This document shows, piece after piece, positions 9,900 through 61,842 of a stretch of DNA of 64,000 nt. This DNA is from Octopus vulgaris (Eukaryota). Numbering within the stretch: position 1 is the stretch's first letter; every line of letters starts with the position of its first letter. The stretch is from contig OX597825.1 in the NCBI GenBank assembly GCA_951406725.2, forward strand, positions 6,572,001 to 6,636,000, read 5' to 3'. Made by a program: the position numbers and the translations under genes. The notes beneath the pieces were generated by a model. It saw only the letters and a program-made list of their open reading frames with translations. It did not search any database and was not told where the DNA came from.

Positions 9900-11010
9900 A
9901 TTTACTCTTTTCTAGTAATATTGCAAAAACCCCAAAGAAAACTAACCCTTACACAAACTACAATATTAATAAGGAAGCAAAGCAATTAGCATTGGTTATT
10001 AAATTAGATGACAAAATTGAAAGCTTAGCTTCAAGCAGTCATCACTACCAAGATTAATTTAAAAGACCATAAATCAAATAAATGCAGACTTACCAGTCTA
10101 AAAATGGATTAGGTAAAGTTAATAGAGTCATTTGTGGCAATCAATGACAAAATTATTTTTTCAGAGAGAAGCAAAATGTCTATCAATTTGGCAAGATTTA
10201 ATATTTTTTGAAGTCTTGACCTAAGAATTATTGTGAGAACTAAAACTAGTATTGTCAGCCTTTTAGATGTTATTCTAAAGCTAGCATTTAACATTTACAG
10301 TCCTAGAAAACAATGAGATATAATGATACATTCACCTAATATTCTGAAAAACTTACCCAGAAGCATTAAAGGATTTCTAAAATATCATGTAATGAAAAGA
10401 TTTTAAACCACGCTACTATATTTTACAATGAGGCTCTGAGCAGAAGTGGCTTCAATGATAGAATAGAGTATTATTTCTTCACAAGGATCTCCTAATACTA
10501 GAAATACCAGGAAAAGTGATATATATTCCCACTTTCAGTTTAAACATCAGATTTAATCTGGCCTGATCCTTTTGAAACTGAGTTAATCAACACTTCCCTT
10601 GTAGTCTTAAGTAACGCAAAATTTTTAACAGATATAACATCAAAGTAAGTTACAGTAGCACGGATATTTTCCCCTCTTCTTTAAAAGAAATTACTCTTCT
10701 TCCTACAAATGATACCTCATTTCAGTGTAACTGTCTTAACACGAGGACATGCCTTGTATACAGTAAAGGCCTACAGAAAAGTGTTGCTTTCAACAATAAC
10801 GACAATGACACAGAATGCTATATAAGCCTTACTAAAAACTCATTGAAATCTAGATATAATCAACTTAGGCACATGCTTAGACATGAAAATAAAACATTAG
10901 AAATGAAACTTCTAAAATATGTCTGAAGTTTAAGAACAAAGGCTTTCCCAACTATAAAATTAAATGGTCTGCTGTCAAATCATCTCTGACTTGCAACTAA
11001 TTATCAAAAA
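9900..11010 (+). mobile_element. Decayed Penelope-like element (Neptune-type RT and GIY-YIG remnants)
   Basis: Broken frames give INKEAKQLA..IKLDDKIESLA, LKDHK..KCRL, FLDV.L, YNEAL.RSGF, HFP...KIFNRYNIKVSYS and YISLT..LKSRYNQ, which are motifs typical of Neptune PLEs; many stops and frameshifts. Confidence 0.7.
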
Positions 11011-25806: not shown

Positions 25807-26178
25807 CTTAAAGACAAAGAATGAAGATTATTTACATTAGTTACATTTGACGGATATTTGCCCTCATCTTGTTTGTTGTTAACACAACATTTCGGCTGAT
25901 ATACCTTCCAGCCTTCATCAGGTGTCTTGGGGATATGACGTAGTGATTAAGAGCATGGGCTACTAACCTGAAGATTCTGAGTTTCATTCCAAGCAGTAAC
26001 CTGAACAACAACAATAATAATAATAACATCGAAAAAATACTTTAGGAATGAGAACCCAGGTTCGAAATTTCCTCAGGACACCTGATGAAGGCTGGAGGGT
26101 ATATCAGCCGAAACGTTGTGTTAACAACAAACAAGATGAGGACAAATATCCATCAAATGTAAATAATGTAAATAATGT
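25807..26178 (+). mobile_element. Palindromic hammerhead/tRNA-head element, copy A
   Basis: Inverted arms with hammerhead motifs at 25881-25926 (-) and 26077-26122 (+); tRNA-like segment ~25930-26001 (+) between them. Confidence 0.85.
26077..26122 (+). ncRNA. Minimal type-I hammerhead ribozyme motif (best preserved copy)
   Basis: GACAC-CTGATGA-A-GGCTG[GAGGGTATAT]CAGCC-GAAA-CG-TT-GTGTT. Stem I is GACAC/GTGTT, the core is CUGAUGA and GAAA, stem II is GGCTG/CAGCC, and stem III is reduced to the palindrome ACGT. Predicted cleavage after GUU (26117). Confidence 0.75.
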
Positions 26179-36602: not shown

Positions 36603-38196
36603 CACTGGGTTGGTCCAAATGTCCTTTAGGTTCTTCTTGACCCCAGACTTGAAGCACTCTAATAAGCAGCTAATTTCAGTCTGTTCATTAGGCATGCACA
36701 CTCATTGAATACTCGACACTTCATTGTAGTCCAACGTGAACTTGTCACATGACAGGTTGCGTTTTGTGCGCTTGGATTCACCTTGGAAATGGAGAACCAA
36801 AACGAACATTATCGACACCTAATGTTTTCTTTTATTTAAAAAAAAGGCAATAAAGAGGTAGAAACCTACTACAAGACATGATGCACAGTTACACAATGAT
36901 TGTATGCGAAGAGGTTTACAAGATTTCAGACGGGATAGTTTTGGGTTCAAGTCGCACCTTGCTCTGGCCAGGCAGCTGAGCTTAACAGTGATAAAATGAA
37001 AGAGATGTTAACACCAACCCCATTAGATGTCCCAGGATGATTGTACATGTTCTCCAAATACCCAAGCTAAGTGTTGAAAACCATCTGCTTAAACTTGGTT
37101 ATATCAGCTGGTTTCTGTTTGGGTCTCACATTATTTAAGAGAGGAATTTCCTGTGATTTGTTGCAGAAACATGAAGAAAATTACCCTTTTTCTCAAGGGA
37201 GTAGTGGACAAGGGAGTAGTGAAAGCGCCTGGCTCAGTGGTTAGAGCATCAGGCTCACAACCATGAGGTAGTGAGTTCGATTCCTGGATCAGGCTCTGTG
37301 TTGTGTTCTTGAGCAAGACACTTTATTTCATGTTGCCCTTGTTCACCCAGCTGTAGAAATTAGTTGCGACATCACTGGTGCCAAGCTGTATCAGCTTTTG
37401 CTTTTCCCTTGGATAACATCGGTGGCATGGAGAGTGGAGGCTGGTATGCATGGGCAACTGCCAGTCGTCCATAAAATAACCTTATCCAGACTTGTGCCTT
37501 GGAGGGTAACTTTGTAGGTGCAATCTCATGGTCATTCATGACTGAAGGAGGTCTTTACTCTAGTGACAAGGGATGAAAAATGAATCATCTATAACAATAT
37601 GAAGTGCAAATAATCATGAACGAAGCATGGTGAGCAACCACAAACATCCTCCAAAGCAGGACTTCACCTGAAGAAGGTTCTGCTTTTGACTCGATAGGAT
37701 TTTAGAACGGTGTAGTCTTAAGTGTCTTCCTATGGACAAAACCATCAATTCAGATATGTTAGACAAATTAGACACAATGATCTCCCTGAAGCTTTCAACA
37801 CCTATTAACTGTAAGGGCATTCCATCATGACTTCCATCATGACAATGCCACACAACACACTTTGTCACAAACATAGCAGACGTTGCTGTGTGGAAAGTTT
37901 TGCCACGATTTTCATGTTTGCCTGAACTTGCAACAACAGATTTCAACTTGCTTCAGTCTCTCCAAAATTCATTGAATGGACAAACCTTCAGTTCTGAAGA
38001 GGATGTGAAAATTCACGTGGAAGAAAATTTTTTTTGCCAGCAAAACTAGAAAATTCATTGAGCAGACAATAATAGATCTGCTCACATGTGATAGTCAGAA
38101 GATTCTGGAACAAAATATTAATTATATCATTGATTGAATAAAGAGCTTTGTGTCTTCTTTTTCCATAAAAGATGTAAATAAACTTATTGACCAACC

Positions 38197-38734: not shown

Positions 38735-39223
38735 CTTTTTCAGTTCCTGTCTACTGTATTTACTCACGTGGCTTTGGTCAGTCTGGAGCAATTATTAGAA
38801 GACTACTGCCCAAAGTACTCTGCAGTGGGCCTGAACCTAAAACCATGTGGCCAGGAAACAAATTTCTTAACCACATAGCTATGCCTGTACCCACGAATGG
38901 TAAAGGGTAACCCCGCCTCCTTCAGTCATGAATGACCATGGGATTGTACCTAGAGCGTTCCCCTCCAATATCCAAATCTGTACAAGACCAGCAGATGCCT
39001 ATACTAACCAGCCTCTCCTCTCCGTGCCACCAATGTTATCCAAGGGAAAGGCAAAGGCTGATACAGCTTGGCACCAGTGACGTCACAACTCATTTCTACA
39101 GCTGAGTGAACTGGAGCAATGTGAAATAAAGTGTCTTGCTCAAGAACACAACACAGAGTCCGGTCCAGGGATCAAACTCACAGCCTCACTATTGTAAGCC
39201 CAATGCTCTAACCACTGAACCAT
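38735..39223 (-). mobile_element. SINE family C joined to the 5' part of SINE family B
   Basis: Family C at 38903-39223 and family B head at 38735-38890; same junction as 59093-59510. Confidence 0.8.
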
Positions 39224-39989: not shown

Positions 39990-40760
39990 TTATATATACA
40001 TACATATATATATGTATATATATATGTTCATCATAAAATTTATATCATTGTGATAAGTTCAATATTTCAAAGAAAGCATGGTCACTCTGATGACTGCAGC
40101 AAAGTAAATGATGATAATGGGAGAGCGAAGGATGGGGGAGGGGGAGACAGAATTAAGATTCAAATTGAGTGATGTTGAGTGTGTTAGTGTAGGAAAATGG
40201 TAGCATTCACAGACAGCAGAAAATAGATTACGGACATAATCACACACACACACACACACAAGCATACACACAAATATGGGAGTTGGTGGACGTGTGTGTG
40301 TGTGTGTGATGTATTGAAAACTGTAATATTTTGCTGTGGTGATGATGCTGATAGGCTGTATGGTAATGGAACTGGGTGTGGTGGTCATGGTGGGGATGGT
40401 TGTACATAACAACAGTTAGGAGTTGATGGTAAAGTATTTACTTTCGGGGGGGACTATAATTTGAAAAAAAAAGAAAAGATAATACTACTACTCAATGGCT
40501 TGGTGCAAATAACTGTCTTCTGTTAAATTGTTATCTTCCTAAATTTCAATTCTCAAAAAGTCACTAATAACTTTGGAACAAAATCAAAGACAATGTTATA
40601 TAAATTATAGATTTACAGATACAATATTTAGAACTTTTTAAAGAATTGACAGCACAGCGTTGTCTCTCTTGTTAAGGTTCGTGCCATACAAGCTACCCTC
40701 TGATATAAAAATAAAGATGTCATACAATGCATTATGAATATTTAAAACCTTATCAACATG

Positions 40761-41219
40761 TTCTATATTTAAGAGATGAGGAATTATGTACATTATTTAC
40801 ATTATCAACATTTGATGGATATTTGTCCTCATCTTGTTTGGTGATAACACAACGTTTCGGCTGATATACCCTCCAACCTTCATCAGGTGTCTTGGGGAAA
40901 TTTCAAACCTGGGTTCTCATTCCTAAAGTAGTTTTTCTATGTTATTATTATTATTATTATTATTATTATATGCCCATGGGCATATGGTGTAGTGGTTAAG
41001 AGTGCCGTCTACTAACCCCAAGATTCCGACTTTGATTCCAGGCAGTGACCTGAATAATAATAATAATAATAATAAACATCAAAAGATACCTTGAGAATGA
41101 GAACCCAGGTTCGAAATTTCCCCAAGACACCTGATGAAGGCTGGAGGGTATAACAGCTGAAACATTGTGTTAACAACAAAGAAGATGAGGACAAACATCC
41201 ATCAAATGTAAATAATGTA
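40761..41219 (+). mobile_element. Palindromic hammerhead/tRNA-head element, copy B, with 12-bp TSD
   Basis: TSD cttatcaacatg at 40749-40760 and 41220-41231; hammerheads at 40846-40891 (-) and 41126-41171 (+); tRNA head 40978-41050 (+). Confidence 0.9.
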
Positions 41220-41269
41220 CTTATCAACATGGTCATGCCATGGCAGAATAATATTCCGGATATCTTTTA

Positions 41270-52355: not shown

Positions 52356-52718
52356 GCATTTGACTCTGTTCCCGCAAATGTTTGCTAAAGTCCTTGCACT
52401 CGGCAAAAGTACCTACTTACTACCTTAGCCACTGTCACAAGACGTTCAGAAAGATTTGGGCAACAATCTTCACACAACTTAGAGTGGAATGATCGTATCT
52501 GAAGTTGTAAATATTTTAAAAGGAATGTTCAAAAAGAGATGGTATTTCTGTATTTTGTTTTATTTTGGCATTAAATCCATTATTTTTTTCAACAAAACTC
52601 CAATGGCTACATGCTAGGGATTGCAACTGCTAGAGTTACCAATGTAGCTAAGAATTTCTTTGTGGATGACTTAATGATCTACGCTAAAAATGTTTACAAT
52701 ATAAAAAAAACAAAACAA

Positions 52719-53177
52719 TTATTTACATTATTTACATTTGATGGATATTTGTCCTCATCTTGCTTGTTGTTAACACAACGTTTCCGCTGATATACCCTCC
52801 AGCCTTCATCAGGTGTCTTGGGGAAATTTCGAACTTGGGTTCTCATTCCTAAGGTATTTTTCAATACTATTATTATTATTATCATTATTATTATTATTCT
52901 GCCTGGAATCGAACTCAGAATCTTGGGGTTAGTAGCCTGCGCTCTTAACCACTACGCCATATGCCTGTGACCTGAATAATAATAATAACAATAATAATAA
53001 CATCGATAAATTCCTTAGGAATGAGAACACAGGTTTGAAATTTCCCCAAGACACCTTATGAAGGCTGGAGGGTATATCAGCCGAAACATTGTGTTAACAA
53101 CAAACAAGATGAGGACAAATGTCCATCAAATGTAAATAATGTACTTAATTCCTCATCTCTTAAATATGGAACTGTAT
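52719..53177 (-). mobile_element. Palindromic hammerhead/tRNA-head element, copy C
   Basis: Hammerheads at 52772-52817 (-) and 53050-53095 (+, core CTTATGA); tRNA head 52899-52966 (-); approximate TSD tataaaaaa(aa)caaaacaa; inserted just after the LINE RT catalytic motif. Confidence 0.88.
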
Positions 53178-54189
53178 TATAAAAAACAAAACAAAAACAA
53201 AGAAAAAAAGAAACACCTGGAGTTAGTAACAATATTTTCAGCCAATATAGGAATGGAATTTGGCCAAAATACCTGTTTGTGTTTGATTATTGAATGTGGG
53301 AAATCAGTCCCCCAAACCAGAACCTGTGCATCAACGACCTCCCTATCTCTCTCGTTCCACACAAAGGATGCTACAAATATCTAGGCATTGATGGAAAACA
53401 TGCACAAAATTGCTGTGAATAGAAACTGAGTGACCTGAGAATATTACAAGAGATTTAGAAAACTATTTCAGTCAGAATTCTCCTCTTACAATAAGACAAT
53501 ATCCCACAATGCATTTCCAATACCAGTGCTGATACCAACATAGACTACACACAGGATCCTGACCTCATCTGGAAACTTCCACAGAAACAATGATATCAAT
53601 ATTGTAAATGGACTACAGGTGCCTGCCTTATAGTCACTCTCAGGGGGCACCTGCTAAAGAATGGCAGCGAAAATAAATATATAAACCCAGAACTAAAAAG
53701 GGAAGTGAACAACATCCTGTGCATCAGCAGTGAATTCCTCAGGAAGTATTCTCTCCCTGACGACCTCCCATGCAATCCTAAAACAGCTAGACTAACCTCG
53801 ATGAAGGCCTGGATATCAAATGCTCACCATACCAAAAGATGACTATGCATGGGTATGTTTTCCAAAGACTTGAGAACAATACTAATATTGACGTGAGGTG
53901 CTGGTTTTCTTGGATATGCAGCTGCTCTCACATCACACTTCAAAGGGGATGCATTTGCAACCCAAGAACAAGAGATTGCTACTAAATACTTAATGAACAA
54001 AAGACAGTGAAGCCCACACAGCCCCAAGATACAATCGATAAAGTAAATTAAGTCATATTTTTGTGGAAGACATCAACACCTGCACAAAAATGTCATGAAG
54101 GTATTCTCTATGCGACATGATGTTTTCACTAAAATAATATTACAAAACCAACCAAAAAACGACTGTTCTGGGATAAAAACAGAGAATCG

Positions 54190-55045: not shown

Positions 55046-55916
55046 ACATGGTTTATCGTCTTTCAAAAGAAAGTAAGAAAATGGAGATATAACATTTAGT
55101 AAAATTTTATCTGCAAACAGCTGTTTCAATTAAGCTTAATAGATTAAATAGCAATTATTAAAATCATTATATTAAGCAAAATCTCTTCAAAGAAGTAGAA
55201 AAAAGATATACCATTATGTTTTTAAGCATTGTATTTTAGAATCAGCAAATACAACCCTTACAAAACCTAATGGTATATCTTCTTTCTACTTCTTTGAAGA
55301 GATTTTGCTTAATATAATGATTTTAATAATTGCTATTTAATCTATTAGGCTTAATTGAAACAGCTGTTAAGAATTATGTTTGATTTTTGCAGATAATACA
55401 TTTTTATCAAATCTTATATCTCCATTATTTACACTATTTACATTTGATGGCTATTTGTCCTCATCTTGTTTATTAACACGTTTCGGCTGATATACCTTCC
55501 AGACTTCATCAGGTGTCTTAAGGAATTTTCAAACCTGGGTTCTCATTTCTAAGGTACTTTTTGAAGTTATTATTATTATTATCATTATTCAGGTCACTAC
55601 CTGGAATCGAACTCAGAATCTTGAGGTTAGTAGCCCGTGCTCTTAACCACTATGCCATATGACTTGAATAATAATAATGATAATGCCATCGAAAAATACG
55701 TTAGGAATGATAACACAGGCTCAAAATTTCCCCAAGACACCTGATGAAGGCTGGAGGGTATATCAGCCAAAACGTGTTAACAACAAACAAGACGAGGACA
55801 AATATCCGTCAAATGTAAATAATGTAAATAATGTACATAATTCCTCATCTCTTAAATATTGGAACTGTGTTACATCTCCATTTTCTTTGTTTCTTTTGAA
55901 TGATTATAAACCATGA
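55046..55916. repeat. Long AT-rich fold-back (~190-bp arms), right arm interrupted by hammerhead element copy D
   Basis: 55046-55236 is the reverse complement of 55248-55426 plus 55883-55916. Confidence 0.85.
55427..55869 (-). mobile_element. Palindromic hammerhead/tRNA-head element, copy D, with 13-bp TSD
   Basis: TSD tta(t/c)atctccatt at 55414-55426 and 55870-55882; hammerhead arms at ~55475-55517 (-) and 55736-55778 (+); tRNA head 55592-55661 (-). Confidence 0.88.
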
Positions 55917-57891: not shown

Positions 57892-57950
57892 TTATAAATG
57901 TACTTGGAAATGGATGCGTGGCATTCGATCATATAATAACATAAGTAATA

Positions 57951-58226
57951 TATAAACATATGCATATATACATACATATATGTACATACCTACATCTATA
58001 TGTATATATACATGCATATATGGGTACAGGACACCAAAAAACGTTGAACACAATGAGAAACGAAAACTTAAAAACAAAAACATGGAAACAAACTTTTTCG
58101 TTTTTATGTTTTCGTTTCTCATTGTGTTCAACGTTTGTTTTGGCGTCCTGTACCCATATATGCATGTATATATACATATAGATGTAGGTATGTACATATA
58201 TGTATGTATATATGCATATGTTTATA
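57951..58226. repeat. Near-perfect inverted repeat (~130-bp arms, 13-nt loop)
   Basis: 57951-58080 (…gggtacaggacaccaaaaaacgttgaacacaatgagaaacgaaaac…) is mirrored at 58094-58226. Confidence 0.92.
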
Positions 58227-58339
58227 AATGTATGTATATTCATATATGGGTGTATGCACACATTCTATGATACTGTATGTTTGTATGTTTATATAAGTCA
58301 AAAATAATTCATGATGTTTATGGCTGTATAATATTGAAA

Positions 58340-61068: not shown

Positions 61069-61842
61069 CCTCCATGTAACATAAATTACGACTGCACAAA
61101 CCTACTTTATATGAAAGCGCTGTCTGTAAAATTGACCATGAAATAGAGTGATCAACATTTCACTCTTTGGGGTTCCAAATATATTTTGTGAGGGATGTAT
61201 AATGCAAACTGCGCCTGTTATTGAAAGAGAATATGCAGTTACTCAATCTAAATTTTAATGCTATAGCACCAATATTGCAATACACTTTATTGGGTGTGGG
61301 GACAGAACATAACATATGTCCACAATATTTGTCACTGGTTACTCAAAATTCAATTATATCAATTCTTACAGTTACACATGATATCAGGTTTACTAATTGT
61401 ATTGTTACTAAAGCTAGTATCATAAAGTAGCACAGAATCAACAGCAATAGATCGAGATGTATTATTAACAGAGGAATTAGAGACAGATGAATAACTATAT
61501 TAATTAAACATACACATAGTTTCTTATTATCACTAGTGGCTATATTATCAACTAAGTTAGGTAAAGTGGAATATGAGAATTTAATGGTGTGCCTGTTCAA
61601 TAATTTACAATATTTACTTGAGCTGGGAAAGTGACTTTCCATTGCTTGGAAAAAAATTACCGTAATATCTATGGCCATTTGAAGTTTGAAGGAGGTAATT
61701 TCACTGTAAAGTAATTAGCATATATAACCTATTTGTCCCTTTGTTATTGTGAAGAACAATCTGACTCAACAGAGAAAAAGTTTTTCCATTACTGTTATAT
61801 TAGCTATGATTGTCACACAATAAACTAATAAAATAATAATAA

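Follow-up and report, generated by a model that had tools for sequence, protein, structure and literature searches.

The 64,000-nucleotide stretch of Octopus vulgaris DNA analyzed here (assembly GCA_951406725.2, contig OX597825.1, positions 6,572,001 to 6,636,000 of the forward strand; hereafter the window) carries four copies of a repeat, A to D, in which a tRNA-like head is followed by an (AAT)n spacer and a minimal hammerhead motif, with a second, inverted arm alongside. The locus raises the question of whether this repeat is an independent short interspersed nuclear element (SINE) that has borrowed a 3' end, as a preliminary description of the window had proposed, or a part of a larger element. 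Our results indicate that the four repeats are almost certainly solo pLTRs (pseudo-long terminal repeats) that belong to a Penelope-like element (PLE) of the Poseidon type, which lies elsewhere in the genome than the window, and that the inverted arm is a by-product of PLE insertion. Positions in the repeat are numbered from r1, the first G of GGGCATATGG, corresponding to tRNA position 1, and genome-wide counts were made on the 2.80-Gb assembly of 227 contigs.

In two of the first 30 genomic matches, a long GIY-YIG-like coding remnant lay directly upstream of the head. When loci were anchored on this remnant, all 30 ran into the head, which directly followed the GIY-YIG stop codon, and 20 continued through the hammerhead. 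The head was found again before the start of the open reading frame (ORF), where the pLTR unit reappeared in sense orientation and its tail continued in frame into the ORF. A majority profile built from ten long copies and the end regions gave a 2,664-nt monomer with an 838-codon frame, starting from the ATG at r118 and reading through the hammerhead. The pLTR comprises the head (r1-72), (AAT)n, the ORF start (ATG at r118) with the hammerhead (r148-193), and a tail to r282. Two copies had the arrangement pLTR-ORF-pLTR (L221 and L223), one was a true tandem (L294/L384), and the pLTR-ORF junction was present in 53 of the 89 copies examined, one junction locus without a chain being left out. Gapped patterns leading from the head or from an upstream word into the ORF gave one and zero matches, respectively, too few to count; the single match exposed the tandem.

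The reverse transcriptase (RT) domain PF00078 was detected above cut-off in three fragments, upstream of the GIY-YIG part, and the N-terminal region lay further up. The C-terminal 300 residues matched Atlas clusters with PF26215 and PF01541 (GIY-YIG) at 0.97, and the ORF contained the motifs DKG, YVDD and CVYSIPCSCG..GET.R. Pfam searches of decayed partner copies gave no GIY-YIG match, and a PDB search gave weak RT matches only. The element shows the features of endonuclease-bearing (EN+) PLEs: a single ORF encodes RT and, at its C-terminal end, GIY-YIG; pLTRs lie on either side of it and partial tandems occur; and there is an inverted truncated copy and a one-ended tail. Its probable placement in Poseidon, as opposed to Neptune or Nematis, is based on the domain order and on the translations, in which no Zn-finger-like linker is visible between RT and EN (criterion from PMC8557442). 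L038 is a frameshifted copy of the same tRNA-headed family. Mobilization by a PLE with RT and GIY-YIG, as expected in the preliminary description, is borne out by a PLE of this genome with the arm sequence in its pLTR. The idea of a SINE head joined to a PLE-derived 3' end did not hold, the head sitting inside the PLE's own pLTR at both ends. The same description had pointed to Neptune-type remnants in the window. The frames concerned (10615-10923, plus strand, and 61346-61714, minus strand) were rejected as the partner, because tblastn with an E-value limit of 1e-3 did not match them to its ORF and Pfam gave nothing meaningful; they are decayed, unrelated to this family, and resemble the endonuclease side of a PLE from another clade, provisionally labeled Neptune-like by their motifs.

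The pLTR far outnumbers the coding part. Exact 18-mer matches numbered 13,227 at r203, 8,607 in the hammerhead and 5,167 in the head, falling further upstream to 1,172 at r-23 and to 804 at r-121; reversed control 18-mers had no genome match, so the repeats do not arise by chance. Division by the proportion of aligned copies in which the 18-mer was matched exactly (43/91, 34/90, 27/88, 23/57 and 24/54, respectively) gave roughly 28,000, 23,000, 17,000, 2,900 and 1,800 arms, which are low estimates because the calibration set favors young copies. The estimate drops from approximately 17,000 at the head to approximately 2,900 just 56 nt upstream, and the SINE-like short copies number more than 10,000, about 6:1 over ORF-linked copies. 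Divergence from the profile had a median of 6.5% and a minimum of 2.1% (298 alignments). The short copies share the traits of SINEs in being short, dispersed and high in copy number, with a defined 5' end and target-site duplications (TSDs). The head of a tRNA-derived SINE (SINE2) is foreign to the autonomous partner; here all 30 of 30 loci have it within the pLTR that belongs to the partner.

The inverted arm was examined in a head-anchored set made up of the first 90 loci in order along contig C1, of 100 listed; alignments confined to the AAT run were ignored throughout, and L253, the same element as L252, was left out. It was present in 59 of the 90 copies, with lengths of 16-341 nt and 52 distinct junction pairs, and long ORF-bearing copies were flanked by inverted arms as well. 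This variable presence, length and junction rule out the fixed architecture of a head between two arms that had been described for the window; the similarity of copies B, C and D comes from their junctions, each of which is located within or beside the AAT run. Arm 3' ends were bimodal, at approximately r235-257 and r280-287, matching the two internal RT start sites that bound the tail in anole Poseidon in vitro, where both DNA strands are cut and extended (PMC11167929). Among 35 insertions with both arms reaching r225, 13 had the tail on the main arm, 20 had it on the inverted arm, two on neither and none on both (Fisher 7e-8; L164, whose anchor and arm form one hairpin, omitted). The one-sided arm extension noted earlier was therefore upheld, as a 30-40 nt tail on one arm. 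TSDs of at least 8 bp accompanied 20 of 55 insertions versus 22 of 300 swapped-flank controls (L164 and L117 omitted). An inverted 5'-truncated copy and a one-end tail have been published for PLEs (PMC8557442, PMC3846280), as have dual minimal hammerheads on opposite strands, 100-700 bp apart (PMC4209133); inverted arms, hammerhead and tail by themselves are already known.

The 5' ends of the copies were concentrated at the head. In the head-anchored set, 78 copies reached r10, of which 62 stopped between r-6 and +10 or folded back there and 16 continued upstream; the upstream truncation rate would predict stops of about 5% per 17 nt. Fold-backs at the boundary accounted for seven of the 90 copies. 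Seven of 42 ORF-running arms reached r13 or further; six of these stopped at the head and one was the tandem. Direct junctions from inside the ORF landed on r-5 (L260 and L261, one shared junction; L342; L362), r-4 (L262), r4 (L327) and r7 (L325). The boundary is likely the place where RT reaches the RNA 5' end at G r-5 and then stops, folds back or jumps. Since the RNAs at the boundary include ORF sequence, they would be pLTR-to-ORF transcripts. L260 (G000:C3:3756489-3759506) and L261 (G000:C3:4755545-4758562) have the same junction from ORF r515 to head r-5 and different outer ends, and are possibly an internally deleted derivative that moved again.

The head contains an A box (TGGCGTAGTGG) and a B box (GTTCGATTCC) at tRNA spacing, which agrees with the tRNA-like head described previously, though it falls below the thresholds of Rfam and ARAGORN. 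The Rfam tRNA model aligned positions 8-63 of one young copy in register at 12.9 bits, below the cut-off of 29; neither the window nor 50 loci yielded a tRNA with ARAGORN, and Rfam over the whole window at E<=1 gave neither a hammerhead nor a tRNA match. The acceptor and T stems have decayed and no longer pair, and the head folded no better than shuffles (z +1.45). The head agrees with host tRNA-Ser(GCT) genes in the D loop, in the B box and, but for one change, in the anticodon loop, and four of 2,000 shuffles were as good. The source of the head is uncertain, because this was the only isotype compared and other host SINE heads are 64-72% alike. As a separate observation, the 38 tRNA-Ser(GCT) pattern matches genome-wide include clusters at G000:C3:70854346-70896824 (18 matches) and C7:103873450-103889789 (seven).

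In 28 of 30 loci, r-5 is preceded at a distance of 28 nt by a TATAA that overlaps the ORF stop, and an AT-rich stretch was seen by eye at a similar place upstream of 10 host tRNA-Ser genes. The sense strand of the monomer contains no TTTT versus 29 AAAA runs; the comparison set for TTTT consisted of other, non-PLE retroelement ORFs. The repeat of a second hammerhead family of this genome, described below, contains 2-5 TTTT runs in approximately 215 nt. Judged from the sequence, and given the sharp start of most copies at the head, the element RNA is likely made from it by RNA polymerase III (hereafter Pol III).

We therefore favor, at a probability of roughly 60%, the reading that the short copies are leader copies made by the PLE's own RT from an RNA that starts at the head under Pol III. 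Transcription would start at G r-5, which lies 28 bases past TATAA and precedes tRNA position 1 by six bases, and could continue through the whole ORF, a read-through open to Pol III because the sense strand lacks TTTT. The PLE protein would cut AT-rich DNA on both strands, and RT would start internally at approximately r235-255 and r281-284; copying from there to the RNA 5' end would yield a SINE-like copy of 250-290 nt. The second strand end would prime at the other RT start site, producing the head-to-head inverted arm, and the tail would be limited to one arm because the two strand ends prime at different sites. Long copies would arise from an RT start in the 3' pLTR or from template jumps. 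Acting as a dimer or helped by protein, the hammerhead would likely cut part of the full-length RNAs after r188, and it would not be needed to define the element ends, nor would a separate SINE master be needed. A stronger form, in which Pol III makes the full 2.7-kb coding RNA, free of TTTT, from a captured tRNA promoter and the SINE-like mass consists of leader ('strong-stop') products, is put forward only tentatively.

The hammerhead comprises stem I (GACAC/GUGUU), the core CUGAUGA, an unpaired A, stem II (GGCUG/CAGCC) and then GAAACGUU, with the cut predicted after r188. The minimal type-I core (CUGANGA and GAAA-(N)-UH) is present with stems I and II, so that the PLE-type minimal type-I motif with an ACGT stem III, as first described, is confirmed in sequence; the Rfam hammerhead models named with it gave no match in the window or on a young copy. 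As to the stem covariation looked to in the preliminary description, no compensatory pairs occurred at common frequency within the family. In the second family, 15 columns are conserved, among them the two halves of the core, and the complementary stems are entirely different; this comparison covers two families only. The sole common non-CpG substitution in the hammerhead was U to A at the free position N7 (50/304), which is also a conservative codon change. Folding z-scores of the monomer (-2.3 to -0.2) were uninformative, and the duplex of the AACGUU palindrome was calculated at -5.7 kcal/mol, in line with the dimer- or protein-assisted cleavage reported for PLE motifs (PMC4209133; PMC11167929); in anole Poseidon cleavage was not needed for insertion in vitro (PMC11167929). 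Dimers had been expected to come from separate or from multimeric or circular RNAs; a full-length RNA would itself carry two same-sense hammerheads approximately 2.66 kb apart, and a dimer could therefore form in cis. Eight of 42 ORF-running arms began at r189-197, just past the predicted cut, versus 1.1 expected (P=2e-5), which suggests hammerhead cleavage in vivo.

The second family is younger (L046:2100-2310, L040:3000-3210, L397-L426). Its minimal-hammerhead repeat is about 210 nt long, 95-97% alike among copies, inserted in (TA)n and without a tRNA head, and its hammerhead reads GTTT-CTGAYGA-A-GAGC-TCC-GCTC-GAAACGTT-AAAC. Most copies start at ATTCAAAA inside a small hairpin, in which TCATTC presumably resembles an initiator (Inr) motif. 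These copies are probably solo pLTRs of another PLE.

Several observations weigh against the leader-copy reading or against one of its steps. The absence of TTTT is weak (P=0.028 in a synonymous-codon shuffle; 1.9 expected under an order-2 model), and A-rich LINE-like (long interspersed nuclear element) ORFs of this genome are likewise TTTT-poor. Sequencing runs of five organisms contained related DNA. In four RNA-seq runs aligned from a related organism, both strands were equally represented, 66-71% of raw reads continued into unlike flanks, and no start or end peak was seen over the repeat. These data fit passive transcription and neither support nor exclude Pol III; A>G and T>C read differences also undo mutations that are peculiar to the reference copy and were for that reason not interpreted as editing. 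A palindrome, TGCCC-AC-GGGCA, coincides with the 5' boundary, and palindromes at pLTR 5' ends are known (PMC3846280). The headless second family has a sharp 5' edge in 24 of 30 copies of a query-biased set, so a sharp edge is not proof of Pol III. The open frame was broken in all eight long copies translated. As for the ribozyme, the monomer hammerhead is not the minimum-energy fold (-11.2 versus -12.6 kcal/mol, 1.4 above), the palindrome TGTTAACA overlaps the r189-197 peak, and short arms alone showed no significant excess there (10 versus 6.5 expected, P=0.12). Between short and long copies, r251 C>A was found in 14 of 57 and 0 of 22, respectively, a weak difference (P=0.008, uncorrected), and more deletions occurred in the long group, probably owing to how the groups were picked.

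Some of these points are also accounted for by an ordinary PLE transcribed by RNA polymerase II (Pol II), in whose pLTR a piece of a SINE or tRNA survives as a fossil, a possible but rather doubtful alternative. Here, TATAA at r-33 would drive Pol II from r-5, or a fold-back hairpin would stall RT, and the A and B boxes would be passengers. The position of TATAA, 28 nt upstream in 28 of 30 loci, fits this explanation, as do the TATA, Inr or downstream promoter element (DPE) motifs of characterized PLE promoters (PMC2377424, PMC3846280), the boundary palindrome with the seven fold-backs, the sharp edge of the headless family and the need of an 838-codon ORF for a translatable RNA. However, the boxes are intact although the tRNA stems have decayed, the boundary lies where a pre-tRNA leader would start, a similar AT-rich stretch occurs upstream at host tRNA genes, and the monomer has no TTTT run, in contrast to the second family's repeat. 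Also against this explanation are non-inverted copies and direct template jumps that end at the same place, and the unremarkable folding of the head.

In a reduced form of the earlier model, the solo pLTRs would have become a Pol III SINE that propagates itself without depending on full-length elements, with the PLE copying it in trans. This would explain the 6:1 excess of short copies, which keep A and B boxes, have TSDs and contain no internal TTTT. The shared junction of L260 and L261, with its different outer ends, also suggests that derived short elements may transpose again, and r251 A was seen only in short copies. Nevertheless, we consider this explanation unlikely. All common substitutions were shared by short (156) and ORF-linked (87) alignments, so a separate SINE master is not required; apart from r251, no substitution marks a short-only lineage, and the inverted junctions vary from copy to copy. 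Moreover, the anole Poseidon template must extend past the outer RT start, into the first 172 nt of the ORF (PMC11167929), and solo copies ending at r282 or r241 lack this part.

The type-I hammerhead of PLE origin, the proposed derivation of animal retrozymes from pLTRs (bioRxiv 10.64898/2026.07.22.740005) and the arms that begin just past the cut site bring to mind a retrozyme-type route, in which hammerhead-cut monomers circularize and rolling-circle copying gives the short copies. This route is very improbable, as the ends lie at r-5, approximately r241 and approximately r282, away from the cut. In the 90 head-anchored loci we noticed no short units arrayed head to tail, no genome-wide search having been made, and no cut-site-to-itself joint was found among 15 listed of 57 RNA-read joints in fragmented RNA-seq.

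All four copies of the window were present where they had been described. Their heads are on the plus strand in A and B and on the minus strand in C and D. In copy A, profile alignment placed an inverted arm (r138-253) at 25821-25936 on the minus strand and the main pLTR copy (r1-249) at 25929-26178 on the plus strand; its hammerhead (26077-26122) is intact, and the cut after GUU at 26117 had been correctly predicted. A TSD was looked for in copy A and none was found. Copy B is bounded by the left TSD CTTATCAACATG (40749-40760, plus strand) and an exactly matching 12-bp right TSD (41220-41231, plus strand). Its inverted arm (40760-40964, minus strand) is a 5'-truncated pLTR copy, r76-279, which includes the PLE tail and is 94% similar to the family profile; the minimal hammerhead in this arm (40846-40891, minus strand) has an intact core and one G-U pair in stem II. 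The main arm of copy B (40971-41219, plus strand; r-6 to 241) begins with the tRNA-like head (40971-41049), which starts from the family 5' boundary with the palindrome TGCCC-AT-GGGCA and contains the A box (40985-40995) and a damaged B box (41030-41039). In its sequence the (AAT)n spacer of the pLTR (41050-41076) follows, then the sense hammerhead (41126-41171), which lies within the first PLE ORF codons (ATG at 41097) and has its stem III palindrome mutated to ACAT, and finally the 3' end (41172-41219), assigned by arm-end clustering to the inner cluster at r241 without the tail, all on the plus strand. Alignment of reads from four runs at copy B showed no empty site.

Copy C consists of a main pLTR copy (52718-52969, minus strand; r-2 to 247) with intact A and B boxes and a stem II mismatch in its hammerhead (52772-52817), and an inverted arm with tail (52967-53180, plus strand; r68-287); its 14-bp TSD (52705-52718/53181-53194) is exact, of A-rich low complexity. 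Copy D has a main pLTR copy (55417-55661, minus strand; r4-254), whose hammerhead (55475-55517) carries a 3-nt deletion at the cut site, and an inverted arm with tail (55667-55872, plus strand; r79-286), with a TSD (55414-55426/55870-55882) of 9 bp exact and 12/13 overall. The TSDs given previously for copies B, C and D were thus recovered, with the reservation of low complexity in C. Only two of eight arms have an intact hammerhead (A sense, B inverted). Both boxes match the profile in copy C alone; the A box of copy D has one change, and the B box of copies A and B is damaged. In Pol II read-through, copies B, C and D (40760-41219, 52718-53180 and 55417-55872) would form hairpins of approximately 180-190 pairs at -212 to -265 kcal/mol, and the hairpins of thousands of such copies are possible substrates for A-to-I editing or small RNAs.

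The (AAT)n spacer was often interrupted by LINE-like coding pieces or other SINEs (L105, L109, L160, L169, L173, L059 and L061) and may serve as a landing pad. The LINE-like pieces presumably resemble R4/Dong or RTE; a similar ORF gave only a zf-RVT match below cut-off. Elsewhere in the window, a near-perfect inverted repeat of approximately 150 nt in (TA)-rich repeats (57895-58267) resembled a miniature inverted-repeat transposable element or a hairpin, the top Rfam match, MIR9555, being far below cut-off. Inverted arms of 237 nt, 85% complementary and 1.5 kb apart (37230-37466 and 38986-39222), are possible DNA-transposon ends. Near a PLE copy, L067:1404-2456 (minus strand) holds a 351-residue open frame, which we take from its motifs to be of the Tc1/mariner transposase type.

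How the pLTRs, tails and inverted ends of PLEs are formed has yet to be settled (PMC8557442, PMC11167929). Thousands of natural insertions with one-arm tails, 5' ends piled at one base and jumps landing there allow the in vitro model of two start sites to be tested in a genome. Should the head function as a Pol III promoter, the element would be a Pol III-driven coding retrotransposon, contrary to the Pol II expectation for autonomous elements (stated for LTR elements, PMC10886601), and would offer a direct route for the birth of a SINE-like or Sm-alpha-like element from a PLE. Should Pol III make the whole RNA, the PLE would be its own SINE, and its copies a genomic record of start site, two RT starts, template jumps and ribozyme cut. 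For annotation, more than 10,000 short copies are prone to being filed as SINEs though they are PLE ends.

In the literature searched, as far as its texts were accessible, we found no tRNA-type head in an autonomous PLE pLTR; Repbase, Dfam, the O. vulgaris repeat library, the bioRxiv supplements and the PAc sequence file, which lie outside this comparison, may hold the family. The accessible text of an O. vulgaris repeat paper (PMC13282606) does not mention hammerheads, that of PMC4209133 does not mention tRNA, mollusc or octopus, and in the giant squid hammerhead matches were merely counted (PMC6962438).

The octopus element resembles the Penelope/Poseidon PLEs (anole PAc, PMC11167929; Adineta Pen2a, PMC3846280; D. 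virilis Penelope, PMC2377424) in its single ORF, which encodes RT with GIY-YIG at the C-terminal end in some 840 codons (842 in Pen2a, 838 here), in a pLTR that includes the ORF start with the hammerhead overlapping the first codons, and in the occurrence of solo pLTRs. It also shares with them the head-to-head inverted 5'-truncated pLTR, the 30-40 nt tail at one end, TSDs near 8-15 bp and the palindrome at the pLTR 5' end. Unlike these elements, for which the accessible texts describe promoter motifs of the Pol II type (TATA, Inr and DPE), the octopus element has a tRNA-derived A/B-box head in its pLTR, and short copies that begin at this head outnumber long ones by about 6:1. Its hammerhead follows the minimal metazoan PLE type (Cervera and de la Pena 2014, PMC4209133), being type I with a 5-bp stem I, an unpaired base before stem II and a palindromic stem III. 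Animal non-LTR retrozymes (PMC7229834; bioRxiv 10.64898/2026.07.22.740005) are likewise non-coding hammerhead units proposed to come from PLE pLTRs; they form tandem arrays processed to circles, whereas the octopus ends do not match the cut site and no arrays were noted in the 90 loci. TRIMp3 elements (Cassandra, Helenus and Ajax; Kojima 2024, PMC10886601) also carry a small-RNA-derived Pol III promoter in a terminal repeat, proposed to have come from SINE insertion, but they are LTR elements without coding capacity, and their autonomous partners are expected to depend on Pol II, whereas the octopus head is carried by the autonomous coding PLE itself. Schistosoma Sm-alpha and Sj-alpha (PMC6765202, PMC2770079) have, as here, a tRNA-derived Pol III head followed by a hammerhead in tens of thousands of copies; those are ribozyme-released tandem multimers, with no autonomous partner sharing the unit named in the accessible texts, whereas the octopus copies are dispersed or head-to-head and their unit is the pLTR of a coding element. 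The pairing of tRNA head and hammerhead is therefore known from Sm-alpha, and what is new relative to the searched literature is an A/B-box head in the pLTR of an autonomous PLE.

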